From Candidatus Omnitrophota bacterium (lineage in GTDB: Bacteria; Omnitrophota; Gorgyraeia; 2-01-FULL-45-10), in the NCBI GenBank assembly GCA_041650935.1, contig JBAZKH010000001.1, forward strand, positions 219,337-283,336: 64,000 bases of DNA, written 5' to 3'. Below are positions 41,201 to 62,725 of this stretch, one piece after another. Position 1 is the first letter of the stretch. Each line of letters opens with the position of its first letter. The translations under genes and the position numbers were made by a program. The notes beneath the pieces are model-generated. The model ran no database searches and was not told the DNA's origin. It was given only the letters and a program-made list of their open reading frames with translations.

Positions 41201-44200
41201 CGACAGGACCGCCCTTAACATAGCGCCGTGGCTCGAAGAGACGGTTAAAGGTATAATCTTCGCGGGCATATACGCATTGCTTTGCTGTTACAACCCCGCA
41301 CATCCGTTATTGAATATCGCTATGTTTACGGTAATGGACATAGGAGTCGGCATAGTATTTACGCTCCTTCATCTGGACAGTGCCAGGGCTCCGCCTCAGA
41401 CCCCGAGAGATATTCTTATCGCTCCCGCGTTGATAAGCCTTTTCGACGCCATTATGTTCCCATTGGCCGTCATTGTTACTACGCTGACCGTATCAAATTC
41501 TATCCTTATAGTCATAGCCATAATGATGATCGCGATTCCCCAGGTCACCATATTCCATTATGAGATAAACAGAAGAGTCTACGAATTGCGCAAAGAAGGC
41601 GCGAATTTAGGGTACGCCATGCTGGGCGGCGATAAGCCGTCCGCCGCGGCGGGTGAGGCGGTAAGCGATCCGTCAGGATCGGCAAATATTACCCGGCGCA
41701 TAGCAGATATCCTTTCCGACGGCCGTCCTAGGGCGCGTGAAAAGTTGGTACGCATGTTTAAAGGTAGTATACCGTCGGATCAGGTAATGGATGCAATAGA
41801 TAAGATGATAGAGTTGCGCGATATTACAGAAGACGGAAGCGTCCTGAGAAGCGAGTCGTCCTTAGTGTCTCCAGAAGAATTGCTTATTAGAGACGCGGTA
41901 AGATTCATGGCAGATGCAGGGTATCCCATCAGTCCGAAAAGAAATGAGTATTTAAGCGCGGAAGATGAACGGAGGCTTGTTGAGGATGGGAGTGAAAAGT
42001 CCAAGCATATCCTTCTCTTGTCTCAACTATTATGGATCAAGAGCCACGCCGAATATCTTCACCGGAGAAATCGCGGCATTCCGGTTATTGATTTTATGCA
42101 TGCGGGGATAAAAGCGGTTAACGATGTTTTGAATGAAGAAGATGCCGCGACGCGGTTCGACCCGTCTAAGAGCCGGCTAAGCACCTACGTAAAACGCCCT
42201 ATTACGTGGAAGATGGCCAAGCTGGTTGAAAAAAAATCTCCCTTGAGATTACAAAGCATTAGCCATGACAAGGAACTTGCGTATAGAGACGCGGGACCTA
42301 TGCCTCAGGCGTCCCGGGCCCAAAAAGATGAAATCAGGAAACTCCTTCTCTATGTAGACGAACGGGAAAGCGAGATAATCCAGCTATTTTTTGGGCTGAA
42401 CGGAGTTTCGTTATCCCCGGAGGAGATCAGTGTCTTGTACAAAGGCCGCCTATTGCCGGATTCGATTCAAAATAGCGTATCGAATATCTTGAAAAAGCTG
42501 GGCTTGCCGAAAGACGGAGGACAGGGCTGTGTCGCGCCGCTTAGCCCGTCTCAGAGAGAGCACCTTTTCTCGCTTAAAACGATCCGCATGGTGGAAGATT
42601 TTATGAATAATCCGCAGAGGGCCGATAGGCTAGCGCCGCGCGACCGTGAAGTCATCCGGCTGATGTACGGGTTGGAAGGCCGGCAAACGCTCTCTTCAAG
42701 AAGCACGGCCGGTCTTTTAGGCATAGCCCATAGCCGGGTCGACCAATTGCGCGATAGGGCAATGTCGAAAATCAGGAAAGAGTATGAATCGACATGGGAA
42801 GAGGCTAGCCGCATGGCCGGCGGCATTACGGAAGAGGAGATGTGCCTGGCCCATGAAGAGGCGATCAGGAAACTGCAGTTCGACGATGATTTTACTCCAA
42901 ACGGCAACCTTCCCACCGTATACGAATTTGCTTTAGAACTTCCGCATAGAGCAGAGAACCTTAGCGTAAAAATGGTTAAGCGTTTGATCGATATTTATAA
43001 TTTAAGGCATCCGGCAGCTCCTCTGGAGTTTCGCGGATATTCGACGCCGGGCACCCTCGGGGAACCGGAGCCGCTGCCGGTGACGGACGGTCTGCGTGAA
43101 AGCGCCGGCTATTCAATGGAAGCTTTGGTGAATGGGGAGGTTTTGACGCCCCGGGCCAATTTCGTTTCGTTGATAGCCAGGCAGAAGGCTCTTGCATATA
43201 GCATAGAACAAGGCGACCTGCCGCGCGTGAAGAGCCAGGTTACTCAGGCTATTACCAGGCTGAGTATGCGCGCGCGAAACTTACAGGCCGGGAAAGTAGC
43301 GAGAAAACTTGTAGGATCACCCGCCGTAAAACTTGCGAATAACAAAAATTTATTAGGCAATGCGGTAGGTTATCTGCAGAAGTTGGTAGAAGCAGGCATG
43401 GTCTTTTCCAGCGAGCCTGCCGGTACAGATATTCCCGCCTGTGCCTTAGGCAGTGCGGCGCTTGTCCTGGAGGAGCGTTTGCTTCAAGGGGATGCGCTGA
43501 TCTTCGATTTAATGCTTGCCAAAGAAGGATATACGCTATATGCGAACTCTGTAGGCAGTAAGCGCGATGCTTTTGACAAAGAAGCGCGTGGCATGATGGC
43601 AGCGTTTGCGGTCTATTGCACTTTCAGTGGTGATGAGAGAAAACATTTAGAAAGCATATATGTTCTTAAAGATGGAACCGGTAAAAAGAAACTCGGCTTC
43701 CTGCCGCTTTTAAAAAATATATATGACAAGGCCGTGATCAATGAAGCATTCGACATCGAGGGGCCGATCAAGGAGTACGTTAAAGGTGCCTACCCCGGTA
43801 TCGAAAACGAAGAGAGTTTTAAATTGACCAGGGAGGATTTATCTGTAGGCAGCCAAAATGACCTATTACCCGCCTATGATCCCGAATTTTTAAAATCTAC
43901 CAGGAGGCATCCGTGCAATATTACCGAACTTCCGGACGGTTTTAATTATAGCCGCATTGTAAGTGTTGGAACAAAGAGTGTGGTTGTGAAGGTCTATAAG
44001 CCAAAGGCTGGGTCGACCGATTACGATCTTCTAAGTATAAAATATTACAATGATTTTCAAGGAGAGGGAACTATAACACTAACGGCAAAAACCGGTGGTG
44101 AATATACTTTAGGTGGAGAAGGCGGACTGCCGTGTTATGATGCGGCAGGCATGATCGCACACCTTAACGGAACCCGAGTTGCCTTAAGGGCTATTTTAGA

Positions 44201-47200
44201 TCCCGCGCAGAATAAAGAGATTGTGGCGTTATTGGATGGATTGAGCTTTTTAGCGAAACCGGTAGAAATAACCAGTAAAATTTCAAATAGAGAGAATAGA
44301 ACTATATATGTACAATTTGTAACTAAGGAACAAGTTGAAATAGCTAGAAGGCAATCGGCTCGCAAAACAACTCAAGCGAGAGAATTTGTTCCAGTGGAAC
44401 AAATGTTAGATACCGGCATTCTCATCGTCCCCGGGGAAAACTTAGAGGATAAGGATCGTATAGGCGAAAAAGCGGAAGGACTTAAGAAAGCTTTCAATGG
44501 TATGGGATTTGAGAATGTAAGCATCGGGTCTCTCGATGCCGCGGCAAACTATGCCCATGTTGTGATATTTGTAGAGCCGGATGAGGAGACTTATGGCGCG
44601 TGGAATAGTACTTTTGAAACCGCGTCAAGGATGTATCCCGGGACTGAGATCTTTAAGTGGTCGACTAAAAGCGGAGGATTGTACCGGTGCTTTAAAGGTT
44701 GGGACGGGGAGCGCATTAAGGGGCACTGGACGGTTCCTGTGGCAGCGCAATATATCGCTCATAGCATAGAGTACGATTTTAAGTTCTACGTCGGCGACCG
44801 GTTTCGCTTTGCGTTCCCTCCGGAAGTGATCGACCTTCCAGCGGCAAAAAAATCTGGATACGATAATCCGGAGAGGACGGATCGGGCAGGATTAAAAGAA
44901 AAGATGGACAAACTCCTGAGAGCGGCCGAAACATATGTCGAGAAATCGAGCGCTTACGAAAAAGAGATCGTGGACCGCAGTGAACTCGCGTTCAATTCAC
45001 GGCCCGCGTATGAATTTGCAGACCGGGTGCCGCGCCTGATATTTGAAAACTTAAAGAGTGCGGGAGCTGAAGAAGCTCGCGGATTGAGTCTGCGGGAAGA
45101 CGATGAGATAAAGATACAATTTGGAGATGATGGCGAAATTTGGAATGCCGTTGTAGCAGAAGTGGACGAAGGCAGGGTCGTGTGCACTGTGCCGCAGGGC
45201 CTGGACCTGAAACAAGACCTTGGAAAGACCGGAAGAATAAAGAAGAGATATAACGATGTCCCGGCAAAGGTGCAATTAGAATTTTTGCAGTATGCCATGG
45301 AACCTGATAGCGGGCATGAGAGCCGTAAACCTCTCGTGGACATAGCGCTGGGCCTTCAGCCTAATCGAACTACAGATGGCAAAGATATTACCCGTAATGC
45401 AATTCTTTTCAACGATAAAGTCGGCAATAATGAAAATCAGCTCCAGATGGTATCGCAGGCGCTGAACGGCCGCTCCATAGAACTCGGCTGGGGGCCGCCG
45501 GGCACCGGCAAGACTCAGGCAGCGGCCGCCGAGGTAATATACCAGAATTGGTGCATGGGGAAGACCCAGCTCATAGCGGCGCAGACAAATAAGGCCGTGG
45601 ATAACCTTCTCCTTAAAGCGAAAGAGATGGGGATAAAAGTTTACAGGGTAGGTAATCATCCCGGAGTCATCGATCCGAAACTGCGCGAGAACTGGATATA
45701 CGCGGACAGGCCAAGAGAACCCCGCGAAGAAGATTTCAAGACGAACCAGGAGTATATTTCAGCCAGGCGCAAATATAAGGATGATTATGATGCATGGCGC
45801 ATGGCATTAGTGAATGAGATCGTATCCGGCAGGGCCATAGTTGGCGGCACGTGCATGGGTATTGCTATGGACAGGTTCATAAATAAGGAGCTGTTGGGCC
45901 ATTATCTGGAGGATTTCCGGTACTTTAAGTTCGACAGGTGCATTATCGAAGAGGCGAGCGTGGCATCCTTCGCGGAGCTATTGCTGGTTTTAGGCAAGGC
46001 CAAAGAGAAGGCTTTTATAATAGGCGATCACCATCAATTGGGATTATCTCCAATGCAACCGGAGCTTGTAGAGAGATTGAAAGCGGCCTCGCTGGGAAAA
46101 GATGAGATCGATGCGATGCAAACGAGCCTGTTTGAGTTTTTGCTCAACCAGGACCATTTTACCCTGACGATGCTTGAGGACTGTTACCGCCTGACCCCAC
46201 TGCAGGTTAAGTTGACCAATTTCTTCTATGATGGAAAACTGAAGGCGATGAGAGAGGTCTCTCCGGAACGAAATCGCGCATCCTTGGTTGTAATAGATAC
46301 TAAGAATGTGCCTCACAGCGATGAACAGATAGGCACGTCCTGGATCAATGGATACGAGGCCGACCTTGCGCTTGGAGTGATAGAGCGCCTGGGTAAGGCG
46401 GCGGATATGGATGTAGCGCACTTAGGACTGATAACGCCTTATAACGCTCAAATTACATATCTCAGAAATGAATTGAGGAAAGATATGCTGCGGAATTGGC
46501 CGGGCCGTGAAGCGTATGAGCGGATCTCGAGGGTCATGGGCAATGTAGGTACGGTATGGCCGTTCCAGGGGCGCGAGAAGCCGGTGATAGTAATTTCTCC
46601 GGTTTGCAGCAACTCGAGCGGCAGGACCGGATTTATGTCGTGGAAGATGTGGAACGTGATGACTTCCAGGGCGCAGGAATCTCTGATAGTAATTCTGGAT
46701 TCCGACACATTCCTGGCATCCCGCCAGGAAAAAGTACCGGAGTTTACAAGGCATATGCTCAAGCTTGCGAAAGAAGAGGGGACTTATATAGAGCTTACGC
46801 CCGGTAAGCCTAAACCCAACCTGTCAGGAATAGTTACTGTTTTAAAACAAACTTTAGCCGGTGAGTATAAAGGAAGACTCCCGCTATTTCCAGGAAGGTC
46901 TTCCGGAGGCACGCAAGGCCGGCCTGCTCCCGCCGCGCCGGCGGAGGGATCGGGCGAGGATAAAGAGAAAGGCCAGATCGCGCGCGGGGATCCTAAGGCG
47001 CTGGTCGATGCGTTATTGGCGCAGCCGATCAAGCCGATGAGGGGCTCAATAGATAAGCAATGGATATCGGAATCGCTGAAAAGAAGAGTGGGCCGTTCCC
47101 GGTTATCTTTACGTGAGAAGGCAATTATGCGCGCCAGGATAGATGATGTGCTGAAGAATAACCGCTTAGCCGAATTCGACGCGATAGTATTGAAAGACCA

Positions 47201-50200
47201 GGCCGATAGCAAACTTATCAAAGGATGGCTGCTGGGATTTAATACCCTGCCCAGGGCTCCCGATGCCGCAGGTGATGAACATTTAACCGCCCTCCAGAAA
47301 CGCCTCTCAATGCAGGGGAAACTATCCAATACTATAGGTCTCGCAACCCAGGCCCTCGATTATATCGGATGCGATGAGTCTCTCCTCCAGGAGTATCTAT
47401 TCCATGAATTTTTCTGCCCATATTTGGGTCATGAGCGGACAAGGATCACGCAAGAAGAGATATTCAAAGAAAATTATCCGCAAGGCTCTTCCACTGCCAT
47501 TGGGCTCGATACCCGCCCGGGCCACAAAGACGGCGAACTGTCGGCGGTATTGCAATTGGTTATAAGCGCTATGCATGATGGAGTGCCGGGGTCCCGGCCC
47601 GGATGGTATAGGAAAAAGAGCGGCCATACATATCTCATGAGGCCGCTATATCCCGAAAAAGCTGTTTCAAGGGCGAAGTTATTGGACCCCGCGGATGTAA
47701 GGATAGACCTGGGGAGCATAAGAAAATATATGGATGAACTTATGCGGAGCGGTAAAAGATTTATTGTCGTGACTTCGCCTCATGTTGTCGAACAGATGAG
47801 GGTTTGGGGATTCCCTTACTATAAGGAATTGCGCAAGAAAAGCATTCTTGTGAAATCCGTGCACTATAAATACATGGACGGGCGGTTGGGGCGTTACGTG
47901 AAAGACGCTCTTAAGATCGAAGACCGCCCGGATGTGATATTGGGGATAGGCATGGGATCCGTATCGGACTGGTCGAAGATCATGGGGCATAAATTTTCCT
48001 GTGATGTTACGTTGATCCCCAGCGCTCTTTCGACGAACGCGCCGTTTTCCGCGAATGTGGCCGTGCGCGATGAGAATAAGGACGGCGGGGAGTTCGGTGT
48101 ATATGGATGGCCTGCGGGCGCCGCGCGCACCGTTTGCGTCGACAGCAGTTTCATCTCCATGAACTGCCGCGGAAACCTGTCCGGAGCGGGGGATCTTATC
48201 AGCTGCTGGACGGCGCTTCTTGACTGGAGGTTTGCCTATGAACACGGCGCTGAGCCGAAGGATCCGGAAAGGGATAAGGTGTTTAAAGAGGCATTGGAGC
48301 ATCTTAACGAGCTAGCCGATACAGCCCCCCGCATCAACGCGAATACTCCCGATGGTATTGAGACGGCCGCGAGGCTTAATGCCAAAGTTTCCAGGCTGAT
48401 GACTAAGTTCGGTTCGGGCAGGCCCAAAGCCGGCAGTGAGCATATACTGTCGGATACTCTTGAAAGGGTGACCAGGCCCAGGAAGATACTTCATGGCGAG
48501 CAGGTGGGCGTATCGACTCTTATAATGATGTATCTCTATAGCAAAATTTACCGGCGAAAAGGCGGGAGATACCCGAAAAATGTTGATGTTAAAGATCTCT
48601 TTAAATTAGTTAAGGCCATGGGGATATCTTTGGACCTGGAAAGGATAGGGCTTACGAAAGATGATCTGGAAGAGGCGCTCATTTCCGCAGAACCCAGGCC
48701 GGGAAGATTTTCCTATTTCGATGTGAATAAAGTTACCCGCGAAGAAGCCCTCGAAGCCGTAAACGCGATCTTCCCGGATAAACCGGCTAGGCCTGCCGCG
48801 GCGGTAAACCCGGCCGCCAAAATTACCCGTCGTTCACTGACCCGGCCAGTGGATGGAGCGGATAACAAGGTTTCCGGGGCCTCTACGGTTGAGGTGACTG
48901 CGGAGGACCTTATGGGTTGGGAGAACGATGTCAGGGACAGGCTGGCGTATCTTAACGACAAGATCGGAGGCTTGGAAGATACGATAGGGATGCGCAAATC
49001 TGATGAGGTGAATCTCTCCCCGTTTAAGCGGGATGAGTATGATTATTACCCGCTTCATACGATAGAAAAACTTATCGATATTAAAGCGAAGTTTGAAGAG
49101 GAGCTCCGATGGGCGCGGAGATTTGAGCAGGTTATTCAGGCCGCCGCGCCGCGATCTTATGACTGGACCGCAGGTCCTGAAGTGACACGCGCGTATCCCG
49201 TATGGGCGCTCGGTAAATTCAATCCAAGATTAAGGAGGGCCTTTATACATTGGGGTATTATAACGGTCGGAGATTTAGTGAACCGGACACCCAAAGATAT
49301 TGTCTCTGCCTGGGATTGCGACAAAGGAATGCTTAAAGAGTTGCAAGCCAGGCTTAGCGAACGCGGCCTTGCGTTAAGAGAGGATCCGGTTAGTTTCCAC
49401 CCCGGGGTGGAAGATTCGAGCAGGGTGCCTCAAAATGGGACGTCTACGGGAATACTTTGGAATAATATCTGTCTTTTGGGTTATAATCCGCCGGAATATC
49501 CGGACGACAAGCCTCTAATTGTTACGGAAAAAGATTCATTGAACGCGGTTCGTGATTTCTTTACACGCGAAAATGGAAAAAATGCCACTTTTATTCTGTA
49601 TGATATTTTTAAAGAAGATATAAATCTCAACTCCATCCGTTCAATAACTGCATCGGGATGTCAGGCCGGATGGTTCTACCAGGTATATCGAGCCGCTATT
49701 GAATTGAATGACGGCAGGAGAGGAGTTGTTATTTTACAACTTCCAGCAAGGTATGGCGACAGAAACGAGCTTATCGCCACAGATTATAATAATTTACAGC
49801 ATCTGTATCGACTCCATCCGGGTATCGTAGTGCGTCCAATTTGTATTTCCGAAAGCCGTACAGGCAGAGACGATGGGACTTCTGCGCTTAATATTATTGC
49901 TGCCGAATGTTTAAGCGAATATATGGAACTCAATCCACGCCAATATTCGCCTTATGCTGTAGTGTCCCCTTATTATGGTTTCGAGCTTAATGCTTTCAGG
50001 CGAAGAGAGCCTGCCGCGCAATATCAGCTTGACGCCGATCGTCAGAATTCAGAAAACGTATTGAAAGGACTTGTAAAGAATATGGTTATTCTGGCGGACA
50101 TAAATCTCGAGACAGAAGCGGTAAGCTTTGTAAGTCAGATAGACATTGGCGCCGGTGATTTTATGGTAAGGCCGCGTGTTGACGGACAATTTGACGCTAA

Positions 50201-52184
50201 ACTCATTACCGCAAGACATATTGAGCGCAATGCCAGGCCGGAGGATTTTATGGAGTATCTTCTCCGCGGGCGTCTTTTCTTTAAGGCCAAACCATCTGGA
50301 TTTCAGGCAAAGCCAATTTTGGATGGCTTCGCACAAGGTTTAGCGGAGAGGTTCGGAGAAAAAGAAGGCGAAAGATATTACAGAAAATGGGTGAGATTGC
50401 TTATGAGAGAAACGGAAAGCAGGCTTGAGACATTGCAATCTTTATATTCTGCGCTTCAAGATGAACAAGGGCCGATATCAATACCGCCGATATTCGAAGC
50501 GTGGCTTAGAAAATATTCCGAAGAAGAGCTTTGTGAAACACGATTATATCCAAGGCAAAAAAGAGTTGTATTGGGATATTTGGATCACGGAAAGGATCGT
50601 GATAAGTTTCGTGAATTCATCAAAGAGGAAATAGGCGAGATACAAAACGTTACAGACGCTCTTTGGGAAACGATAGATCATGACTTTAGCCAGACCATCA
50701 GCCAACAAAATAAAATTACCTATAGTTTCCACCCCGGGGTGGAAGATTTAGGCGAGGGACAGGAGAAAACAGAACCGTCCCCAAGGCTGGCAGCATTTAT
50801 AATAGACGCAGTGACAGGCCGGCAAGTTGAAGCTGTGATAAGAGAGACTGAACCTGGCCACATTGTTGTAGAGGTGGATGGAGAAAAAGAAGGGCATCTT
50901 ACTTATACTATAGGTACATTCAAAGGGCAGAGCATGTTGTATATCAGAGATATTAATGTGGAACCGCGTAATCGGTTTAGCGCTAAACCGGAAAGAAGAT
51001 ATAAAGGCGTCGGGTTGAGGCTTATGCAAGCGGTTGCCGCGATCAGTTTAGAGTCTAATATAGCTAAAGGCGCGCTTCGTCTATCTTCAAGGAGAAATAA
51101 TAAAGATGCTCAAGCATTCTATGAGACTCTTGAGTATTTACGTTTCGCCAACAGGCGCGGGCTTTGGCGCTCTAAGTCCGAGCCTGGGGATGTTATGATC
51201 CAGTGGAACCTCAGGTCTCATGACGCCCGAACGTTCATCAATAACATCGAATCACTGATTAAGCGCGGTCATTTTAAGAATGGGGGCGGTCCGGAAAGAA
51301 CCGTCCTGAACCACTCCCCAGCACCCGAGGTACAAAGTGCAAGTGGTGCTGGATCGGGTTCAGGACAGTCCCCAGCCGCCAGCTTTACTGTGTCGGATGA
51401 GTCAGGGAAGATAGCGTCCGGCGTTCAAGCGCCGGTGCCGCAACCGGTGACTATGACAAATACTATCGCCGCGGAGCATTATATGACTTCGAGAGATGCC
51501 GGCTGGCAGCCTGCGGCTGCAGCGGTAACCGCAATAACGCCCGCGCCCGCAGCGCCTATGGCAATAGAAGGCAACGCGGCCGGCATTGTCGAATTGATAA
51601 ACGAGAGATTCAAAGACGTCAATGTCAAGAGCGGCGCCGGTGTGGTGCTTTCAGAGAACCTGTTCCTGGATAGCGAAGAGGACAGGGAGGAACTGGAGAG
51701 GATAAAGCTCGTCTTCGCCGAGGCAATAAAGAGCGGCGCTATGGCTATACTGAATCTTGAGGAGATACGGACAAGGGCCAAGAGAAGCTCGTCCAAGGAA
51801 AAATTGGCCGTAATACTGGCCAGGGAAGACTATGAGAGCGATAAAGCGCTGTGGGAAGGTAATGGCAAAATGGTCCCGGCGAAAGCGAGCGTCCTGATAT
51901 TGGGTGATAAACTGACAGGCGCGAACTATCTCTATCTGCAGGGCGTGGTCGGCCTGGCGAGGGCGATCATGTCGGGCAACGCTCAGGCGATCGGCTATTA
52001 TTATAAGGTGCTCGCCGGCGTGGATATAGACGACAGCGTTTTGAAACTTCTCGACTCTGCCGAGTGGAACAATATTGCTTTTGCGGTCAAGGCGATATTG
52101 AGTTTCAGAAGTTTGGGCAGGATAGACGACAAAAAATTTACCGCGCATCGGGAGAGGATGGAGACACTGCTTATAGCGGCGTAA
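23262..52184 (+). CDS. giant mosaic membrane-anchored protein (9,640 aa). Contains GDE-like, 2x GH13 and GH77 alpha-glucan enzyme domains; sigma-70 region 2 + 2x region 4; AT-hook; Upf1-like SF1 helicase; Fe-ADH/DHQS-like; RNAP alpha-CTD-like; GNAT
   Basis: A single uninterrupted 28,923-nt reading frame. N-terminal hydrophobic anchor (LPFAVRIIASILVVTFLAQDIVWA). The domain signatures are listed in the separate domain features. Confidence 0.85.
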   Translation: MMKAEEVLPKLSHHRLPFAVRIIASILVVTFLAQDIVWAHPDPFVDQSAQNNTLAPSTFFKLKDSKDRGGALFVEYLIERHPKFHSNISLIAIQHILEDKDILAWFDENKITCKPDYANGGQLGAISINIPTGYTFRYYDPDFDRENSFTCDPQSVIDSKELNPRLHKQIIRAGDKTATPTAQAQPEGPPATLATPLTREKAITHYTDKMGGYTWDNLGAKAQESLIAKYSALREIFHVFDPVWFLRQHINRSWKEELAHSLGIIAIWAGMALSFVIMTILTSSFLDIAYINAVPYAYPIAVPIALLADWLIHRACDMLVINYSVALSRGPDQYDFTNIVDAETLSNFVDKLQESQTYDYGEYDSRFLRPLFELLFTKLRQDFSGSEYFIAECRKVLAEKDSYELRRMMSGAFLKSFEKITQKPGTEKASVGFYGMLFYYLTRRPRPYFGHLYRTFIITRPEAQLAFGKRGRSYYSRGESAASYYRKGFLYGQYENPYFTSSIHMYETTSRADRRNTKNALKIQKALAIWQAEANRRDDWRMRRRINNFINRTTVLEIDVKTSLFFSDPENNVVRLIHAEGRRCALNLPAPYLARLRLDSENDDDMRELATYLNFGQELIDISGRVIKMEAGSEMDREARTIATVSFLNNTKDHFVSTDRLRRNLAAFMEEDTMSIYTDLARERFDREKEAESSLKAGIKGGEREQFARARDIYSRLMYRYDGAGMYSKAQESCDHMFSATEGAILHDRGVLTCPYSIENLFTALRFGRRDEFLSGLRTVTTGRGLPRYIERREVEIFKTMLSPSNEKRNSFQDDVLETLSAQAEAMDIEKTGSFMESAKSILHNYFGKKIDDRFGDLEPYEIEYPDLYYSAEKPVISIISGGHYISGEEVTRNAGIIIDAVRRRVPASSGRDYLSGGGIREIINSVSGRLDAHRSGFLPKERELLQTALKSLRVLNITELNSITLHSEKSPACPDLWMFGLNTSLPYHTKADLDELPAALNRDIREEFPNTLLLSSDILDSIENDKALLHEYILCVLLLSHVDQATSRYLRAALFPENQRDVKAQVLRRGEKFQTLNNVRMLEQIFGNRIASEEPSSDGPILTTPKTREKAIAYYTRKMGEREWNRLTSVDQELSIGKYAARREIFHLFNPIWFFRQHPNTSWKEELIRGLGIIAIWAGMTLSFVIVTAITSLLLDISYSSAVPYAYPIAVPIALLVNWLIHRTYNILAVKHKFAMLAAGDGSESDKLPSATDAERKKALDARLAAALRKLFFKDSRAMTALEAGLPHFSKKERGRDTAISLLGIIAAGWSAEAKDLILKWTGMEEGGLVPNVIRHDNNPQDDALYAAPPPTSDAALWLVEAVHKYIEKSGDRAMLDCVVDNKGKKVIDVLRNIYNRYSTPGGSDSVVCSDPATGFVWVRKKTTWMDTDSTERQGYPVEIQALWYNALNKMCSLDKSVAAEYKSLADKVKSNFHEYFWNSAESTVFDILGADGFETAAESKDRNRRDPAVRCNQIFTVYFGLAEGADAKRILESTKRRLLVPGGLKTLAAPERIYVQDTRDDGARAKDEAEGRVIGWPHAVYYKYYDSNKSADDRNKAYHNGTAWPWLYPFYWAAAVKCGSEAKDTSVDTMVKEYLELMSDPWTGGNASSGGSLPELLDAEASPAPDGRTKHYPKGCGEQAWSIACAIWGLDELSPAPVQPGRFTNGDNPKTKRSGIRYCRFKSDKIGISPIDALMGISQTAVLTPETRKDFSDIVRKVKAGINDREANGPIDEDASDFLDELIEEGRVRAAQMDFEAIYLDDILYIDEGLLADDKEDELVKCLREAVRTSARSGKLIIEVDAHGLANAFGTTIDNIPDIIMDGGLGDIPAKIIRSSDKAPGVLHLNPGYLHCDHRLIKDIWDWFAFELGADTVWLKGVWEESMLSRAMAKEWHRLDVAAGRDSPHAKRENGSRYDVYNYMVDKRLIGSGNGAANTNEAMRNFVKSCIKPKGLNIMLDFVTNQIAADAPCIFNDNTKNLVWSWDSDAEFYAHMRRLGRADWSDKRLEETFLIGAEVRGYREYSRVAKGMLSGTGGIRAMDEDELQIWINKGTLPPRFTSYRIVRHLENGSLTTALINYSEEVNRRYMGGIVNMMADMTLEGGIRGDIVHRAYWNKYFDDHLAPLGMSREEAGKKMPGEIMDELMADLRREHPGTRFLGEVHDSPGKDGNIKFFARMGERQGINATAYYKDYSDEVLSRGAAQNVRAYLFGVNDEEQRGRTTMFTNHDEATGLEALGSIERVRAAAGMCAMHGGPVLIPLTEILPERRPDELWPSDRGHPAHKNWRDSAVHIPQYDFTRLDVPLAGQCHFFGRPGFTKARRHWVNAECVRKFQEDIAVALENDEGIHAIVKPAYIDSLENSGLVAMIRRSRKEDLLTICNDSDVSTEIMICLDRVFGANSTEPPIEGELGKVLYSEGTKVYSGPRTLIVELPAYGYSNFSFRKTEASRKKEEAVKALVEEVHKRARAEEKTWAGNFYQHYRDRLGEREFGVVFEDALERLLFSGEDIERRGAAWIISHDEFLGPVALKQDWDRMKLEELFRPLEDRAVLPFVLAHETKGLWAITKFLEEVPSRKEHWIVAQLLAAAMSVTDMQLRTEIMKEVFSSMPVTLPSISGEGRLLMPSGTEETLMQQHYKQTSLVSVKKLTDMIGPELAAKIYLKRYGNHNNDEPAYEIAGEETNLTLKDAASKNGWIAANTSWSQANGNTLARQQLVKLKAESREAMDAFALTVGGEAYLLFFGDGHKGKILPESFEFLPEPDPAHNSPGLYILFDAWKKDSYGVVTKSGLISDGLPVDIPAGGQMILMLAPPEKERPEILQVSVEFLGGMDKLGDNLKQLLDDIYAAPGGIIWFVGAHPKGEIGKLLNDGPNLSGIYARDIEHGGRNYRVATHGPVKSVTSGDTASAFCVTDLKDPVVIGKMKTVLDALGRRRPITVFDLTGHLSIDSPVILEHPDWCRPFTGVLQEWRQGGIPENLKEEDILSMPGIWGWGFLLSVPLADPKKPLVEDPIVRKLTERGFVFGRDPLDKDRIRVLVCHHTSDFGPMPDIASLDLNHPEVRQYYLDTFRAWLEAGGNGFRIDLAYHFPSELLGLFKKRFPKLTCITEYYNVFGQMIDVHHRTGIDGFYDHEELWKKVRDSFSMADSSEPLQAWLFDFQKYLASGVFVHYLSNHDEDTALNIFGGDRRKYLAALAFIAFLPGYLMINFPDALGLMWRGYTDAAGKTKYDILRELPFAKFMRLARRANQGLDGETYEGLPYDVSLLGNVNNIVASRSADIFRKGIGFVVPRREDGIAWYKRTYHGKTAIVMINYSPLPKQVDLKRYITEPGINVGTAHFLPFESRIYFIEDGRLSTPRGIVNFNEFYRKALEEFYGDVSDGAWAERFCVMCRNEFQGRSDRDFRAVFRDIKSALRFMFRYGPDNVKSAADWMVKDHEKGLWEQFKYAIEADFYAMADQSDPDSPQARRILRGLLEDTATFPGLRDTAFGYVNNALGEAFNSGDVMRMRNIFYVEAGLLRQEDELSWAGKFIEKHKNSWAGKFDGTHKIDWRSDGLLLAFRDVVLAWNRSEGPMHDAAQWILYNLQSDFSAPFLGYYRLTIADINSRLERGERSTLGDMKDLLSEVAEIPGLAAQIGNDAIGGMHKGVPNLTNEDSLAGLLGMEASLLQQMHGSGWAKIFTENYKDKWQGPSGREQNRVFLAAFRNVALDWNSSNDESTSFAAKWMLYNPDSPYSAEFSRPYVEELDEIGRAFKKPGSPAFDALAAFLARADKISGLREHLTGKAIETVRGAAESCSGDRLKSLLRLEANFLKELRREGWAREFIESHRKQWKDHDFTDVILEWNRSEDVPTFAAAQWMLFGPDSNFSSVFFDKYKSDINDMLESVKKTPSEHGPEVSRTLELLLHDARYIRGLNKRLLEEMTQRINIGHAPEDIVFYCEIAAELARAQADPQLAARIFKLVQDARSHPPQPELSAFLMTYNLFILTVSFVTWLTGEMLGTNNLIGLYGMSGYLFAVFLPFAASILVHEFADYFATWIKTGERPYLPRFKGLSLQVTPSFEGQEIVNIGPYASAALTFIALPILYLAGVSPLFLAITAAYSFVHTIFSDNFLFLKAAAKKLGMLQATYWWNEKKHGGILCSLFSGKRKDDQGIGDLKWLDMFIDFADKQGADMIFLLPTTQINPGGIPGLSTPYGSISTFAQSAIMYLPLDEYLDKAKLGEYIDSFVAGDEAKRQKLLEALRSRKIDYPFIYAFKKHCWWQVFKDRYPGMSVDENTEFDSYVRQNRDWIEDYSLFHALFAKFDKAWWDWDDKYKNRDEKALDEARETCKEEISFYKYMQWLYDKRWKEVRVHAREKGKRIIGDMPLYPEPNSADVWAYQDLFIGSKRAGAPPEPGISDLGQKWQFWPYNWKYKSKEVLGFLEKRIRHMAQLYDGIRIDHVLGLLQEWNVDKSDEVKPTEGEWVPEDNKVAIKFGRKNLRRLAKVAARTNTLLIGEDIGGRDKSIIKMMDDVCERLPNFYLFHMIGWLEDKRQDKKHLWTFDAGHDQPCRFAFRWEEMKSVNNEIDMRGVRHFLASHGETIADSDTPEDVEKKVSRALRRMPFYSFTLQALLKAPKEARINSPGTQNFENWSWRSQDIEDLLEMEDLGYYYREEPLAVAEEKNNRGVGTPFAGDAAFSNDNVSVSSLIAGLGLKPGASQDDIDGVIIEAVNDPAGNDTLLQILGFNKTQREALAQALMPSPKVRSLFEKERNFAGIEYIVRVPGIKEARIESAREKVMLGIQCWHDYGHKFAKFVALAYNIKKGDKEDEVRGKIEKIMGEYAPILRDREFLEKMSDYFEHYPPVMLSLVYVLWAQIRAGPEEEIKPLTEALLKVSRINIGTPLEYIPYYKLIAVKYLALLGVDNTHSIIVPLAQHPQEDDFFRTAFQTLVFIAASNRLRSLFDFVGPKADPKAARLAVRIVVAAHPADSVYAKFLDLAAQYPDAEVRRMAEEAKEKAFPSSAAPWEIDDQANRAADPNDGLTPTDMWGEEDLSGKAPQKEDGEIYQQVQLMLQVAPPVLVEVTNIKVWKRLLQELGHKGEAYFLGETDDMPLKTTAAWANKIYPEHTSEDVQHIYEDATRIPLANMFKMFVFGDFPAVKFHERLHAAMSLRALKEGTLYRKEDDSVFNGTERNDAKALKALSGKYDDAREAFRGLESALSNYPGGELSQELFAWLGTIDRYPDFIGKPSFPEGSEEAEYLKHYFDPKKRSTAVMLEPTRQFIAVARRHPEIVEFLRQYYGRLQKFTQETAPFLGFTSGQIAAAFGGYAPRNGGGGAGMVLGWAPLKKRHGWLPTSWMLFLPIFGLYVVDWNRGINRPEPPEIPVFENGHAGGELFCLSKKRAMIPVAGAVKVKRDGEYIVFYHENEADVLYTKDGEEARIKVISEDQNSGIAIIEENNNICGFNGENVAYATRAVLNREVEFFRERRLRHYAAAPLTAKKKEPIDDPVSLNRRVTEDVSHNLKRLTRDGLVFMDICAGLFKLIKKRPPSNYAELSRWVDSKDHSNTPFPAREDLDYDLDALMEGHSSFSLIRQRLNFPAVDISEYNWLRQGWAVLCPELITLLKEYGNDRQKGYAAMWDHLNELSSAAKIVMVGNALEEEVRIRRELSEGERLELVKIKLLSKLAVEHPGVLIGIVRQLYGLRYYHELGIIEDMYARIECDIPLEIKDIVIDASQKIDIAKKLHRIYGLPLEEGLYCVTDEEINGRLKEKFLTAENSNRLSFEKLKNLIMVLDNFVNAPPYSKSAKVSAKKDLRFNDYERASNIVHRLRAIDEHRFAVTLQRLERVVSRWEERVDRQGAYSQAGLVKLLWTFWHSTNIGEEMARYTTDMIGKPPVFTDLKYNIIFGIEDDVSAGPKKSKAKPGRPRGSYKKKAGKDSIEPGMLDAVLAVGRWWYNKVKKLGLDEEDLRDRTALNIAPWLEETVKGIIFAGIYALLCCYNPAHPLLNIAMFTVMDIGVGIVFTLLHLDSARAPPQTPRDILIAPALISLFDAIMFPLAVIVTTLTVSNSILIVIAIMMIAIPQVTIFHYEINRRVYELRKEGANLGYAMLGGDKPSAAAGEAVSDPSGSANITRRIADILSDGRPRAREKLVRMFKGSIPSDQVMDAIDKMIELRDITEDGSVLRSESSLVSPEELLIRDAVRFMADAGYPISPKRNEYLSAEDERRLVEDGSEKSKHILLLSQLLWIKSHAEYLHRRNRGIPVIDFMHAGIKAVNDVLNEEDAATRFDPSKSRLSTYVKRPITWKMAKLVEKKSPLRLQSISHDKELAYRDAGPMPQASRAQKDEIRKLLLYVDERESEIIQLFFGLNGVSLSPEEISVLYKGRLLPDSIQNSVSNILKKLGLPKDGGQGCVAPLSPSQREHLFSLKTIRMVEDFMNNPQRADRLAPRDREVIRLMYGLEGRQTLSSRSTAGLLGIAHSRVDQLRDRAMSKIRKEYESTWEEASRMAGGITEEEMCLAHEEAIRKLQFDDDFTPNGNLPTVYEFALELPHRAENLSVKMVKRLIDIYNLRHPAAPLEFRGYSTPGTLGEPEPLPVTDGLRESAGYSMEALVNGEVLTPRANFVSLIARQKALAYSIEQGDLPRVKSQVTQAITRLSMRARNLQAGKVARKLVGSPAVKLANNKNLLGNAVGYLQKLVEAGMVFSSEPAGTDIPACALGSAALVLEERLLQGDALIFDLMLAKEGYTLYANSVGSKRDAFDKEARGMMAAFAVYCTFSGDERKHLESIYVLKDGTGKKKLGFLPLLKNIYDKAVINEAFDIEGPIKEYVKGAYPGIENEESFKLTREDLSVGSQNDLLPAYDPEFLKSTRRHPCNITELPDGFNYSRIVSVGTKSVVVKVYKPKAGSTDYDLLSIKYYNDFQGEGTITLTAKTGGEYTLGGEGGLPCYDAAGMIAHLNGTRVALRAILDPAQNKEIVALLDGLSFLAKPVEITSKISNRENRTIYVQFVTKEQVEIARRQSARKTTQAREFVPVEQMLDTGILIVPGENLEDKDRIGEKAEGLKKAFNGMGFENVSIGSLDAAANYAHVVIFVEPDEETYGAWNSTFETASRMYPGTEIFKWSTKSGGLYRCFKGWDGERIKGHWTVPVAAQYIAHSIEYDFKFYVGDRFRFAFPPEVIDLPAAKKSGYDNPERTDRAGLKEKMDKLLRAAETYVEKSSAYEKEIVDRSELAFNSRPAYEFADRVPRLIFENLKSAGAEEARGLSLREDDEIKIQFGDDGEIWNAVVAEVDEGRVVCTVPQGLDLKQDLGKTGRIKKRYNDVPAKVQLEFLQYAMEPDSGHESRKPLVDIALGLQPNRTTDGKDITRNAILFNDKVGNNENQLQMVSQALNGRSIELGWGPPGTGKTQAAAAEVIYQNWCMGKTQLIAAQTNKAVDNLLLKAKEMGIKVYRVGNHPGVIDPKLRENWIYADRPREPREEDFKTNQEYISARRKYKDDYDAWRMALVNEIVSGRAIVGGTCMGIAMDRFINKELLGHYLEDFRYFKFDRCIIEEASVASFAELLLVLGKAKEKAFIIGDHHQLGLSPMQPELVERLKAASLGKDEIDAMQTSLFEFLLNQDHFTLTMLEDCYRLTPLQVKLTNFFYDGKLKAMREVSPERNRASLVVIDTKNVPHSDEQIGTSWINGYEADLALGVIERLGKAADMDVAHLGLITPYNAQITYLRNELRKDMLRNWPGREAYERISRVMGNVGTVWPFQGREKPVIVISPVCSNSSGRTGFMSWKMWNVMTSRAQESLIVILDSDTFLASRQEKVPEFTRHMLKLAKEEGTYIELTPGKPKPNLSGIVTVLKQTLAGEYKGRLPLFPGRSSGGTQGRPAPAAPAEGSGEDKEKGQIARGDPKALVDALLAQPIKPMRGSIDKQWISESLKRRVGRSRLSLREKAIMRARIDDVLKNNRLAEFDAIVLKDQADSKLIKGWLLGFNTLPRAPDAAGDEHLTALQKRLSMQGKLSNTIGLATQALDYIGCDESLLQEYLFHEFFCPYLGHERTRITQEEIFKENYPQGSSTAIGLDTRPGHKDGELSAVLQLVISAMHDGVPGSRPGWYRKKSGHTYLMRPLYPEKAVSRAKLLDPADVRIDLGSIRKYMDELMRSGKRFIVVTSPHVVEQMRVWGFPYYKELRKKSILVKSVHYKYMDGRLGRYVKDALKIEDRPDVILGIGMGSVSDWSKIMGHKFSCDVTLIPSALSTNAPFSANVAVRDENKDGGEFGVYGWPAGAARTVCVDSSFISMNCRGNLSGAGDLISCWTALLDWRFAYEHGAEPKDPERDKVFKEALEHLNELADTAPRINANTPDGIETAARLNAKVSRLMTKFGSGRPKAGSEHILSDTLERVTRPRKILHGEQVGVSTLIMMYLYSKIYRRKGGRYPKNVDVKDLFKLVKAMGISLDLERIGLTKDDLEEALISAEPRPGRFSYFDVNKVTREEALEAVNAIFPDKPARPAAAVNPAAKITRRSLTRPVDGADNKVSGASTVEVTAEDLMGWENDVRDRLAYLNDKIGGLEDTIGMRKSDEVNLSPFKRDEYDYYPLHTIEKLIDIKAKFEEELRWARRFEQVIQAAAPRSYDWTAGPEVTRAYPVWALGKFNPRLRRAFIHWGIITVGDLVNRTPKDIVSAWDCDKGMLKELQARLSERGLALREDPVSFHPGVEDSSRVPQNGTSTGILWNNICLLGYNPPEYPDDKPLIVTEKDSLNAVRDFFTRENGKNATFILYDIFKEDINLNSIRSITASGCQAGWFYQVYRAAIELNDGRRGVVILQLPARYGDRNELIATDYNNLQHLYRLHPGIVVRPICISESRTGRDDGTSALNIIAAECLSEYMELNPRQYSPYAVVSPYYGFELNAFRRREPAAQYQLDADRQNSENVLKGLVKNMVILADINLETEAVSFVSQIDIGAGDFMVRPRVDGQFDAKLITARHIERNARPEDFMEYLLRGRLFFKAKPSGFQAKPILDGFAQGLAERFGEKEGERYYRKWVRLLMRETESRLETLQSLYSALQDEQGPISIPPIFEAWLRKYSEEELCETRLYPRQKRVVLGYLDHGKDRDKFREFIKEEIGEIQNVTDALWETIDHDFSQTISQQNKITYSFHPGVEDLGEGQEKTEPSPRLAAFIIDAVTGRQVEAVIRETEPGHIVVEVDGEKEGHLTYTIGTFKGQSMLYIRDINVEPRNRFSAKPERRYKGVGLRLMQAVAAISLESNIAKGALRLSSRRNNKDAQAFYETLEYLRFANRRGLWRSKSEPGDVMIQWNLRSHDARTFINNIESLIKRGHFKNGGGPERTVLNHSPAPEVQSASGAGSGSGQSPAASFTVSDESGKIASGVQAPVPQPVTMTNTIAAEHYMTSRDAGWQPAAAAVTAITPAPAAPMAIEGNAAGIVELINERFKDVNVKSGAGVVLSENLFLDSEEDREELERIKLVFAEAIKSGAMAILNLEEIRTRAKRSSSKEKLAVILAREDYESDKALWEGNGKMVPAKASVLILGDKLTGANYLYLQGVVGLARAIMSGNAQAIGYYYKVLAGVDIDDSVLKLLDSAEWNNIAFAVKAILSFRSLGRIDDKKFTAHRERMETLLIAA
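23828..24260 (+). other. giant ORF: duplicated module A, copy 1 (TREKAI..Y..KMG...WKEEL...GIIAIWAGM, with TM helices)
   Basis: ~140-aa module repeated at 26571-26980 with high amino-acid identity and extended nucleotide identity. Confidence 0.7.
26571..26980 (+). other. giant ORF: duplicated module A, copy 2
   Basis: TTPKTREKAIAYYTRKMG...SWKEELIRGLGIIAIWAGMTLSFVIVTAITSLLLDISYSSAVPYAYPIAVPIALLVNWLIHR parallels copy 1. Confidence 0.7.
27230..28340 (+). other. giant ORF: (alpha/alpha)6-barrel glycoside hydrolase domain, glycogen-debranching-enzyme (GDE_C / amylo-alpha-1,6-glucosidase)-like
   Basis: YHNGTAWPW hallmark, upstream GLVPNVIRHD...YPVEIQALWYNAL, downstream GCGEQAWS. Confidence 0.6.
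28900..30720 (+). other. giant ORF: GH13 alpha-amylase-family module 1 (divergent) with C-terminal beta-sandwich domain
   Basis: Region I-like MLDFVTNQ, region II-like GGIRGDIVH, region III FLGEVHD, region IV FTNHDE. A domain-C-like segment follows: LVAMIRRSRKEDLLTICNDSD...TLIVELPAYGYSNFSF. Confidence 0.45.
32250..33420 (+). other. giant ORF: GH13 alpha-amylase-family module 2 with domain C
   Basis: DLNHPEVRQYYLDTFRAWLEAGGNGFRIDLAYH (region II, nucleophile Asp), ITEYYN (region III Glu), YLSNHDE (region IV), LPGYLMINFPDALGL. Domain C: IAWYKRTYHGKTAIVMINYSPLPKQVDL. Confidence 0.7.
33640..35150 (+). repeat. giant ORF: four tandem ~145-aa repeats (W.(E/K)F.E.H...W......D..L.WNRSE....AA.WML..PDS.FS)
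   Basis: Repeat starts at ~33650, 33940, 34378 and 34813, i.e. a period of ~435 nt. Confidence 0.65.
35275..35740 (+). other. giant ORF: internal transmembrane block 1 (about 4-5 predicted helices)
   Basis: LSAFLMTYNLFILTVSFVTWL ... AALTFIALPILYLAGVSPLFLAITAAYSFV. Confidence 0.55.
35763..37100 (+). other. giant ORF: GH77 4-alpha-glucanotransferase (amylomaltase/MalQ-like) domain
   Basis: GIGDL, STPYGS, DMPLYPEPNSADVWAYQDLF, GAPPEPGISDLGQKWQFWPYNW, RIDHVLG, LLIGEDIGG. These match the conserved GH77 blocks in order. Confidence 0.75.
41040..41100 (+). other. giant ORF: AT-hook-like motif (KKSKAKPGRPRGSYKKK)
   Basis: GRP core flanked by basic residues. Confidence 0.45.
41255..41570 (+). other. 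giant ORF: internal transmembrane block 2
   Basis: IIFAGIYALLCCY..., IAMFTVMDIGVGIVFTLL, ILIAPALISLFDAIMFPLAVIVTTLTV, ILIVIAIMMIAIPQV. Confidence 0.55.
42040..42790 (+). other. giant ORF: sigma-70-family-like module (region 2 followed by two region-4-like HTH segments)
   Basis: GIPVIDFMHAGIKAVNDVL...RFDPSKSRLSTYVKRPITWKMAK compares to sigma region 2 (DLIQEGNIGLMKAVEKFDP..FSTYATWWIRQ). SEIIQLFFGLNGVSLSPEEISVLYKG...SIQNSVSNILKKL and REVIRLMYGLEGRQTLSSRSTAGLLGIAHSRVDQLRDRAMSKIRK compare to region 4. Confidence 0.6.
45440..46720 (+). other. giant ORF: SF1 helicase domain, Upf1/DNA2-like (AAA_11/AAA_12)
   Basis: Walker A GPPGTGKT, IEEAS (motif II), IGDHHQLG (III), ITPYNAQ, TVWPFQGREK (V), VMTSRAQESLIVI (VI). 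Confidence 0.75.
47750..48730 (+). other. giant ORF: Fe-dependent alcohol dehydrogenase / glycerol dehydrogenase / dehydroquinate-synthase-like domain
   Basis: RFIVVTSPHV..., ILGIGMGSVSDWSKIM (GGGS-like loop), LIPSALSTNAPFS, HGEQVGVST. Confidence 0.5.
49195..49385 (+). other. giant ORF: RNA polymerase alpha-subunit C-terminal-domain-like helix-hairpin-helix
   Basis: LGKFNPRLRRAFIHWGIITVGDLVNRTPKDIVSAWDCDKGMLKELQARLSERGLAL aligns with alpha-CTD [53 protein letters not shown]. Confidence 0.55.
50790..51175 (+). other. giant ORF: C-terminal GNAT N-acetyltransferase-like domain
   Basis: Motif A RYKGVGLRLMQAV and motif B AQAFYETLEY. Confidence 0.6.
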
Positions 52185-52186
52185 CC

Positions 52187-52225
52187 ATTTTCTTGCCGGG
52201 TGAAAATTTCACCCGGCAAGAAAAT
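52187..52225 (+). terminator. 39-nt perfect palindrome immediately after the giant ORF stop (attttcttgccgggtgaaaatttcacccggcaagaaaat); likely bidirectional terminator
   Basis: Core cttgccgggtga...tcacccggcaag is identical to the leader palindrome at 23144-23167; convergent with thpR on the - strand. Confidence 0.6.
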
Positions 52226-52316
52226 ATTCAAATTTGGTGCCCGGGCAACCGGGATAAGGGAAGCCTTTCCCCCGAGTTAGGCGACCTTTATCCCGACCCG
52301 GGCGCTGTTTTTGTGT

Positions 52317-52895: not shown

Positions 52896-52912
52896 CTACT
52901 AAACCCTGCACC

Positions 52913-62719: not shown

Positions 62720-62725
62720 AAGACA

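Follow-up and report, generated by a model that had tools for sequence, protein, structure and literature searches.

How a single open reading frame (ORF) of a Candidatus Omnitrophota bacterium comes to hold a helicase, a dehydrogenase and an acetyltransferase in its last third, and in what form these parts would serve the cell, is the question raised by the locus considered here. The window, i.e. the whole stretch of DNA that was analysed, comprises 64,000 nucleotides (nt) of contig JBAZKH010000001.1 (assembly GCA_041650935.1, positions 219,337 to 283,336 of the forward strand), and a giant protein of 9,640 amino acids (aa) is encoded in it by a single stop-free ORF. We put at about 60% the probability that the C-terminal third of this giant is the soluble part of one membrane-anchored mosaic protein composed of independently folding, linker-joined modules. 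The proposed order of these modules would run from a helicase cassette (an N-terminal region and the helicase) through module A, a Zn/NAD(P)-type domain similar to glycerol-1-phosphate dehydrogenase (G1PDH), a helix-hairpin-helix (HhH) unit, a kinase fold (module X) and a GNAT acetyltransferase to a linker and a shared C-terminal domain (CTD). The layout of the giant is as follows (P numbers denote proteins and L numbers denote loci found in the searches).

23262..52184, plus strand: giant ORF, 9,640 aa, with a hydrophobic N-terminal segment resembling a signal peptide or anchor
43239..44696, plus strand: conserved region, aa ~6660-7145, without a family, accompanying the helicase in other proteins of Omnitrophota as well (BLASTP colinearity with P0001-P0003 and L003)
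44895..46931, plus strand: Upf1-like superfamily 1B (SF1B) helicase unit, aa 7212-7890, with two RecA-like halves between a clade-specific N-terminal and a conserved C-terminal extension
46971..47591, plus strand: module A, aa 7904-8110, without a family, preceded by a Pro/Ala/Gly linker
47598..48833, plus strand: G1PDH-like domain, aa 8113-8524, Fe-ADH superfamily
49224..49385, plus strand: single HhH unit similar to the RpoA alpha-CTD, aa 8655-8708 (NCBIfam RpoA models, E 0.0024)
49488..50720, plus strand: module X, aa 8743-9153, predicted protein-kinase-like fold, lowest GC content at third codon positions (GC3) of the gene
50751..51230, plus strand: divergent GNAT acetyltransferase domain, aa ~9164-9323 (Pfam, NCBIfam and profile evidence)
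51264..51611, plus strand: low-complexity Ala/Pro/Gly/Ser linker, aa ~9335-9450 (from the translation)
51621..52181, plus strand: CTD, aa 9454-9640, 187 aa, alpha/beta fold, ending in ...METLLIAA

The part downstream of the dehydrogenase domain (aa 8525-9640) was divided into modules by an exhaustive HMMER search of 1.84 billion representatives. The preliminary description of this DNA had covered positions 45440-51175, corresponding to aa 7393-9305 of the giant. Its inventory of that range was incomplete, as module A and the kinase-fold module were overlooked, and its helicase began too late: the conserved unit starts about 180 aa before position 45440, at aa 7212 (nt 44895). The GNAT domain, taken there to be the last structured one, is followed by the folded CTD, and what had been called a short tail is this conserved, confidently folded domain of 187 aa.

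The frame of the giant is free of stops over 28.9 kb, and all eleven motifs quoted earlier were found verbatim in its translation. In the upstream two-thirds, Pfam models matched GDE_C (aa 1276-1688, E 3e-58), GH77 (aa ~4181-4668, E 4e-79), Sigma70_r4 (aa ~6455-6506, E 1e-5) and, weakly, alpha-amylase at about aa 3086. Each of GDE_C, Alpha-amylase, GH77, Sigma70_r4, AAA_11/12, Fe-ADH and GNAT is present once in the giant, and BLASTP of the protein against itself detected no internal repeat at E <= 1e-3. A hydropathy scan placed hydrophobic clusters at aa 262-295, 1173-1222, 3225, 4007-4130 and 6019-6100 and gave zero hydrophobic segments past aa 6100; the last ~3,540 aa are thus expected to be one soluble stretch. 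By inference, this stretch is located in the cytoplasm, because the helicase, the NAD(P) enzyme and the GNAT would require ATP, NAD(P)H and acetyl-CoA. At the DNA level, the sole internal duplication found is one of 300 nt near the N-terminus of the giant. The duplicated positions, 23842-24227 and 26572-26957, are ~74-75% identical, lie 2,730 nt apart and encode, at aa ~262 and again at ~1173, the same kind of transmembrane module (GIIAIWAGM.LSFVI...).

The modular nature of the C-terminal third follows from the distribution of its parts. The helicase cassette also occurs as the C-terminal part of stand-alone proteins of 1,650-1,900 aa (L002, L005, P0003) and in the middle of an open frame of at least 7,374 aa in L003, where the sequence downstream of it is unrelated. 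Module A, for which no Pfam or NCBIfam family was found, is 38-42% identical to the Omnitrophota proteins P0124 and P0125 and weakly similar to aa 898-1063 within the giant itself. Elsewhere, the sequence after the G1PDH-like module holds helix-turn-helix, isonitrile-synthase-type DIT1_PvcA or B12/radical-SAM domains, and module X stands alongside PPDK_N, receiver (response-regulator) and methyltransferase domains. Since each module recurs with different neighbours, the C-terminal third is read as a set of tethered independent modules and not as a pathway. The modules would work as separate tethered enzymes: the predicted helicase as an ATP-driven 5'-3' nucleic-acid translocase, the dehydrogenase-like domain as an NAD(P)H-dependent polyol-phosphate oxidoreductase, and the putative GNAT as an acetyl-CoA-dependent acetyltransferase. 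As to L003 (CAZUQR010000023.1), the frame is open across the whole 22-kb locus, and its record carries the label 'uncultured Planctomycetia', unlike those of the remaining close relatives with a name, which are labelled Omnitrophota.

A second line of evidence is provided by L012 (Ga0172381_10000747), a syntenic contig from a related genome. The ligT/cinA flank of the giant (window 52238-53494) is 65% identical there, and a conserved hairpin is 87% identical. The position of the giant is occupied by P0262, a CTD-bearing protein of 3,357 aa, whose similarity to the giant is confined to the CTD and ~360 aa (aa 4680-5040 of the giant). The presence of a protein of mostly different content at the same position points to a fixed locus at which modules turn over rapidly, and modules would be gained and lost at linker positions. 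The named closest relatives of several parts of the giant come almost all from metagenome-assembled genomes of 'Candidatus Omnitrophota'.

The dehydrogenase domain was assigned to the branch of the glycerol and G1P dehydrogenases. The search of solved structures gave the G1P dehydrogenase of M. jannaschii, 4rgq, as the best match (E 1.4e-15), and 16 structures of glycerol or G1P dehydrogenases matched at E < 1e-3. NF002022 (NAD(P)-dependent G1P dehydrogenase) was the best NCBIfam model, with E 9e-28 over its positions 23-345 of 350, and the GldA model scored 45 bits. In Pfam, Fe-ADH (27 bits, cut-off 31.3) and Fe-ADH_2 (21.8 bits) both remained sub-threshold. The three motifs quoted from this domain are placed in the translation as follows.

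aa 8226 (nt 47937), plus strand: ILGIGMGSVSDWSKIM, motif of the G1PDH-like domain
aa 8251, plus strand: LIPSALSTNAPFS, motif of the G1PDH-like domain
aa 8411, plus strand: HGEQVGVST, motif of the G1PDH-like domain

The Rossmann-like block around these motifs had been compared with both glycerol dehydrogenase and 3-dehydroquinate synthase (DHQS). The latter comparison was abandoned, as the significant matches are all G1P or glycerol dehydrogenases and no DHQ synthase family appears among the Pfam matches at E <= 0.01 or in the NCBIfam list; membership in the Fe-ADH superfamily is retained on the grounds of 4rgq, NF002022 and the metal triad. An Asp (in GAGDLIS) and two His residues (in GSEHILS and LHGEQV) align to GMGD, GSEH and LHGE of 4rgq and are conserved in the window domain and in its Omnitrophota homologues P0121-P0123. 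This Asp-His-His triad we take to be the metal ligands, following the established GldA and G1PDH structures. The domain has a clade-specific N-terminal part of ~100 aa; about half a dozen close relatives were found in a collection of 5.8 billion proteins, and named stand-alone G1PDHs are 24-27% identical to it. As far as its sequence allows, it is a divergent member of the G1PDH/GldA branch, and the label 'G1P dehydrogenase' exceeds the evidence.

The CTD connects the giant with many other proteins. In the HMMER search it matched 94 other protein clusters of 72-6,932 aa; in all but one of these (93) it closes the chain, with at most 27 residues left before the C-terminus. The chains mostly terminate in x-[AS]-A, 27 of 74 in -IAA. 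All seven of the looked-up clusters whose NCBI name bears a taxon are Omnitrophota, and the names given by the Prokaryotic Genome Annotation Pipeline follow whichever enzyme was recognised in the chain (GNAT, 5-formyltetrahydrofolate cyclo-ligase, RpiA, sigma-70). The structural model shows a four-stranded alpha/beta unit followed by helices, with a predicted local-distance difference test score (pLDDT) of 90.3 and a predicted template-modelling score (pTM) of 0.89; neither a Pfam or NCBIfam family nor a PDB match (best E 0.06) was found for it. The conserved positions are mainly hydrophobic and aromatic, which suggests a structural or interaction role rather than a catalytic one. The CTD has no conserved residues of catalytic type and would be a common handle for the assembly or targeting of the whole mosaic family.

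A conserved domain at the extreme C-terminus of variable cargo also resembles several secretion signals. The protein, or its C-terminal part, could accordingly be imagined as an effector exported to the cell surface or to a host or prey, with the CTD as export signal and with host nucleic acids, archaeal-type G1P lipid backbones and glucans as targets. Such an effector would agree with the N-terminus, which is similar to a signal peptide or anchor, with the archaeal lipid backbone made by the nearest solved relative of the dehydrogenase domain, and with the predatory or host-dependent lifestyles and surface giant proteins proposed for Omnitrophota. Nevertheless, the alpha/beta CTD of 187 aa is unlike known C-terminal export signals and gave no match in the PDB, cofactors of the cytoplasm are required by helicase, NAD(P) enzyme and GNAT alike, and the many internal hydrophobic clusters favour a retained membrane protein. 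The genes flanking the giant are housekeeping genes, with no secretion genes among them. Export is for these reasons considered unlikely, and a membrane-anchored mosaic whose C-terminal third stays in the cytoplasm is preferred.

Between the dehydrogenase and the GNAT, two modules were recognised. The relatives of the alpha-CTD-like HhH unit form tandem arrays in other proteins. Additional units of this kind in the giant were looked for and rejected, as a hidden Markov model built from the repeat-bearing relatives detects aa 8655-8708 alone. Module X occurs in at least 20 large proteins and in some proteins of 340-385 aa. No Pfam family was found for it or for seven relatives, short and possibly stand-alone ones included, and no NCBIfam family for module X itself. 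An AlphaFold (AF2) model of it was made from an alignment of 22 sequences (pLDDT 83.7, pTM 0.85). At E <= 1e-3 this model matched 72 chains of the PDB; the 50 chains listed are without exception protein or small-molecule kinases (probability 0.96-1.00), among them LAMMER kinase, KIT, NahK, methylthioribose kinase and amicoumacin kinase; the template-modelling scores are low, at ~0.3-0.4. The near-invariant residues of the same alignment are G, G-D-F, T..R, E and P, their correspondence to kinase motifs having been assigned by eye. The predicted model has a protein-kinase-like fold.

Module X is directly preceded and followed by two identical copies of a short repeat, 1,332 nt (444 codons) apart.

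49391..49416, plus strand: 26-nt repeat TAGTTTCCACCCCGGGGTGGAAGATT, first copy, in frame as SFHPGVED, aa 8711-8718
50723..50748, plus strand: 26-nt repeat TAGTTTCCACCCCGGGGTGGAAGATT, second identical copy, in frame as SFHPGVED, aa 9155-9162

Each repeat holds a perfect palindrome of 18 nt, TTCCACCCCGGGGTGGAA, read as FHPGVE. In the window the palindrome is found at 12557-12574 (intergenic, before truB), 49395-49412 and 50727-50744, i.e. in three copies with 0.00 expected. A 20-mer version is present in 16 metagenomic contigs (loci L007-L022), in up to three copies within ~2 kb; the helicase-related loci L001-L006 contain no copy of the palindrome. The 20-mer occurs in all three reading frames, open in all of them, and also in apparent upstream regions of genes, the start codons of which are putative. 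The palindrome is therefore regarded as a DNA-level element. Two further readings were tried and discarded: as an inverted pair of an uptake-sequence-like 9-mer, since the 9-mer occurs only once outside the palindromes, and as a general protein linker motif, since, of 267 related proteins compared, P0262 alone contains SFHPGVED.

The segment bracketed by the repeats differs in composition from the rest of the gene. Its GC3 is 0.38 versus 0.54 for the giant gene, in codon usage it deviates more strongly from the gene average than each of 83 equally long sliding windows, and the 444-codon window with the lowest GC3 of the whole gene falls in the bracketed region. The dip begins at the first palindrome and runs on through the GNAT (49413-51230). 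The syntenic gene of L012 has two in-frame copies as well, of which one is perfect and the other differs at one position; they are separated by 606 codons and enclose a different module. GC3 is 0.39 within the bracketed segment (89-1924) and 0.52 after the second copy, only 29 codons preceding the first. The pair might be a REP-like element that survives only in permissive linkers, or it might mark the joints of module insertion, and both fit these observations. A wider and decidedly tentative proposal is that the Omnitrophota mosaic giants constitute one superfamily defined by the CTD, which serves as a handle, with modules swapped as cassettes at in-frame copies of TTCCACCCCGGGGTGGAA. If true, cassette exchange at palindromes would be a mechanism of domain shuffling operating at the DNA level inside giant genes.

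The same repeats could be taken for peptide signals. The giant would then be a polyprotein precursor cut at its linkers, with SFHPGVED as the cleavage site, so that helicase, dehydrogenase, kinase-fold module and GNAT are freed. Long low-complexity linkers do separate the modules, SFHPGVED occurs exactly twice in the giant, both times at module junctions, and a related pair is found in the syntenic P0262; furthermore, processing by a C39 peptidase has been proposed for other Omnitrophota giants in the main text of West-Roberts et al. (10.1101/2023.11.21.568195). However, the Pfam scan of all 9,640 aa gave no peptidase family at E <= 0.01, the motif is rare among the related proteins, and it is conserved as a nucleotide palindrome that appears in other frames and outside genes, which argues for a DNA element rather than a peptide signal. 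This makes the precursor quite improbable.

For the helicase, as for the dehydrogenase, the family matches go well beyond what chance would give. Pfam assigned AAA_12 (E 5.5e-28, 98.3 bits) and AAA_11 (E 2.2e-20, 74 bits), the cut-off being 27 for each, and the best solved structure was yeast Upf1/Nam7 (E 4.5e-22), with human UPF1, DNA2, IGHMBP2 and Sen1 also among the matches. The score of 134.6 bits for the NCBIfam IGHMBP2 family (TIGR00376) lies below the trusted cut-off of 348.9. Together with PADLOC, these matches bear out the earlier assignment to the Upf1/DNA2/Nam7 branch, and on its sequence the unit is an SF1B helicase of the Upf1/IGHMBP2/MkoA type. The motif series in the translation is the following.

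aa 7411, nt 45492-45515, plus strand: Walker A, GPPGTGKT
~45942-45959, plus strand: motif II, IIEEAS (IEEAS at aa 7562, nt 45945), the Walker B Asp being replaced by Glu
aa 7587, plus strand: IGDHHQLG
aa 7724, plus strand: ITPYNAQ
aa 7764, plus strand: TVWPFQGREK
aa 7799, plus strand: VMTSRAQESL

Six proteins that are 36-53% identical to the window helicase form a clade with it and are Omnitrophota wherever named; the five close homologues with a source name or title are 'Candidatus Omnitrophota' metagenome-assembled genomes, save L003. The seven clade members agree with one another and with yeast Upf1 (8rd3) in motifs I, Ia, III, IV, V and VI, the Arg of motif VI being among the residues kept; the conserved segments of the alignment are GPPGTGKT, AQTNKAVD, GDHHQLG, YR, QGRE and SRA. 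Motif II is [IVL]-E-E-[AG]-S in all seven, the canonical DE occurring in none of them, whereas in the same alignment the Upf1 homologues P0052 and P0066 and the bacterial P0010 carry DE. Because the Asp-to-Glu change is shared by all clade members, it is a trait of the clade and not decay, and it keeps the carboxylate. The motif series given in the preliminary description as complete is hence present as quoted, with motifs I, Ia and III-VI intact, apart from the Walker B Asp. Degeneracy, the possibility raised there against the helicase, does not apply, as Walker A and the motif VI Arg are intact and the Walker B change is clade-wide.

The highest library score of the helicase was obtained with PADLOC, for MkoA of the Mokosh system (E 1.4e-55, 187 bits), and a PLuB-system helicase-like model of NCBIfam matched as well. 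The helicase might on this basis be a Mokosh-like anti-phage module, with the attached enzymes as its effectors or sensors. Yet the MkoA match covers profile positions 517-1095 of 1112, i.e. the generic helicase core alone, and neither a full-length match nor the partner nuclease was found: PADLOC gave no other match in the C-terminal third, and the Pfam scan of the giant gave no nuclease or phospholipase D (PLD) family. The stand-alone homologues also have no conserved operon context of defence type, the neighbours being recJ/recG and TonB genes in L005 and unrelated genes in L002. A defence function is very improbable on these data, and the helicase is treated further as one cassette of the mosaic.

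The GNAT domain, claimed earlier as a terminal acetyltransferase, was recovered on weaker evidence than the helicase and the dehydrogenase. Acetyltransf_1 of Pfam scored 23.5 bits with the long query and 29 bits with the isolated domain, above the cut-off of 20.7, and the best NCBIfam model was RimI (E 2e-5). A profile of ten GNAT-related modules had acetyltransferases as its two best PDB matches, both weak (E ~3e-3). Motif A (Q/R-x-x-G-x-G/A) is present as R-Y-K-G-V-G at aa 9246-9251. The predicted domain is in this sense real but divergent.

aa 9246 (nt 50997), plus strand: RYKGVGLRLMQAV, GNAT motif A region (from the translation)
aa 9283, plus strand: AQAFYETL, GNAT (from the translation)

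Several observations weigh against the reading of the C-terminal third as a set of working cytoplasmic modules. The giant has ~11-13 hydrophobic segments, the parity of which is not settled by hydropathy, and the cytoplasmic side rests solely on the cofactor logic; the role given to the CTD is purely inferred, and the chain may undergo proteolytic processing after its synthesis. As regards the helicase, the substitution at Walker B could lower or alter the predicted ATPase activity. For the dehydrogenase domain, the NF002022 score of 97.2 bits is far below the equivalog cut-off (413 bits), GIGGGR in the glycine loop of the archaeal enzyme is replaced by GIGMGS, and STN stands in the place of SND. 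Module X has neither the conserved beta3 Lys nor the DFG Asp or a second conserved Asp. In the GNAT relatives, the first Gly of motif A is not conserved and the last Gly alone is invariant, and two of the ten family members reach Pfam E <= 0.01. Taken to the extreme, the Walker B substitution, the sub-threshold Fe-ADH and equivalog scores, the weak GNAT and the atypical kinase fold could point to an assembly or frame artefact or to a fusion of inactive relic domains, but this is scarcely credible for a frame that is stop-free over 28.9 kb with at least eight family matches all in frame, that has counterparts of similar length on independent contigs and that lies next to cinA, the product of which is identical on other public contigs. 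Moreover, the substitutions are clade-wide while the other catalytic residues stay invariant, which indicates selection.

The surroundings of the giant are those of an ordinary bacterial chromosome. Upstream of it are ligA, CCA/polyA polymerase, truB, ribF, pnp, ftsK, rodZ, miaB, pgsA and pgpA; downstream are the convergent ligT and cinA, followed by recA, alaS and his genes. With such housekeeping genes on both sides, the giant is considered a chromosomal gene and not part of a mobile element or phage. The only RNA of the window is one tRNA-Pro, an Rfam search at gathering thresholds having returned nothing else, and no structured RNAs or introns were found in the giant gene. The end of the gene is marked by a hairpin.

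52187..52225, no strand assigned: hairpin with perfect 19-bp arms, directly 3' of the giant stop and before the convergent ligT, probably a bidirectional terminator

Between this hairpin and the 3' end of ligT there is another, very stable hairpin of ~70 nt at 52236-52306 (-46.5 kcal/mol, z -5.6), with a U-run behind it. This hairpin is 87% identical in L012 (2762-2836) and has no Rfam family. Farther downstream, another hairpin (CGTAGGGGACGTTTAAACGTCCCCTACG or a variant of it) followed by (A/T)TGTGGATAACTT occurs three times, at 55910-55950, 58509-58549 and 62725-62765, each time directly upstream of a gene, namely alaS, hisD and ORF 62743. The sequence TGTGGATAA is the complement of the DnaA-box consensus.

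Omnitrophota giants are among the longest known proteins, and the one described here is small enough to be dissected. Its chain is shown to be assembled from separately inherited modules, which include a clade of Upf1-like helicases in which the Walker B site is unusual yet conserved, and a bacterial relative of the enzyme that makes the archaeal lipid backbone. The CTD common to about a hundred otherwise unrelated large proteins and the palindrome pair around a compositionally foreign module are both relevant to the assembly of giant genes and to the cellular handling of their products. These are the parts most deserving of follow-up.

The modules can be compared with several known systems. 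With the Upf1-like SF1B helicases (Upf1/Nam7, IGHMBP2, DNA2, Sen1, MkoA) the window unit shares the AAA_11 and AAA_12 architecture and six alignable motifs. It differs from them by the EE in place of DE in motif II and by the extensions at both termini and the inserts of its clade; it also has no CH domain, nuclease or PLD partner and is embedded in a giant membrane protein. The metal triad is common to the dehydrogenase domain and to archaeal EgsA, bacterial AraM and GldA of the Fe-ADH/DHQS superfamily, 4rgq being the nearest solved relative, but the window domain has been found exclusively as one module among others within large proteins of Omnitrophota. The GNAT passes the Pfam cut-off and shares the R-x-x-G-x-G form of motif A with the GNAT N-acetyltransferases (PF00583; RimI-like), from which it is set apart by a divergence so strong that most of its relatives are missed by Pfam.

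Short dispersed palindromic repeats that also occur inside genes are represented by repetitive extragenic palindromes and bacterial interspersed mosaic elements (REP/BIME), by the cyanobacterial HIP1 and by the Rickettsia palindromic elements, which lie in frame in coding sequences. The palindrome of the window is likewise repeated, intergenic as well as in frame within ORFs. It is much shorter than the Rickettsia elements and much longer than HIP1. In contrast to all of these, two identical copies here bracket one compositionally deviant module, and the arrangement recurs in the syntenic gene.

As for the protein as a whole, the preliminary description held that this is not a described architecture. 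This holds for the exact combination of domains, which was not found elsewhere in the searches of this analysis. It does not hold for the class, since multi-enzyme, mostly membrane-anchored Omnitrophota giants, some of them GNAT-bearing, are already described in two preprints (bioRxiv 10.1101/2023.11.21.568195; 10.64898/2026.06.07.730766). In these preprints the class is characterised by many distinct Pfam families per chain, GNAT and sugar-metabolism content and 80% sequence singletons. In term searches, the main text of the 2026 preprint (10.64898/2026.06.07.730766) gave no mention of 'helicase', 'AAA', PF13086, PF13087 or PF00465, and that of the 2023 preprint (10.1101/2023.11.21.568195) mentions only SecA-type helicase domains and no 'dehydrogenase'. 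The same searches of the main texts brought up no AAA_11/AAA_12 helicase, Fe-ADH/G1PDH-like domain, shared C-terminal domain or palindromic junction, 'C-terminal' appearing only in other contexts. With the 'class 1' giants, as they are presented in the main text of the 2026 preprint, the window protein has in common many tiled enzyme families with no dominant repeat, the Omnitrophota origin, the sugar-metabolism and GNAT content in a unique combination, and several transmembrane segments without an obvious secreted architecture. Its 9,640 aa fall just under the thresholds of 10 kAA or more used in the two studies; that of the 2026 preprint, 10,000 aa, is an operational cut-off and not a biological criterion. 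The giant is a further example of the Omnitrophota multi-enzyme giant proteins: the class is already known, and the example is new.

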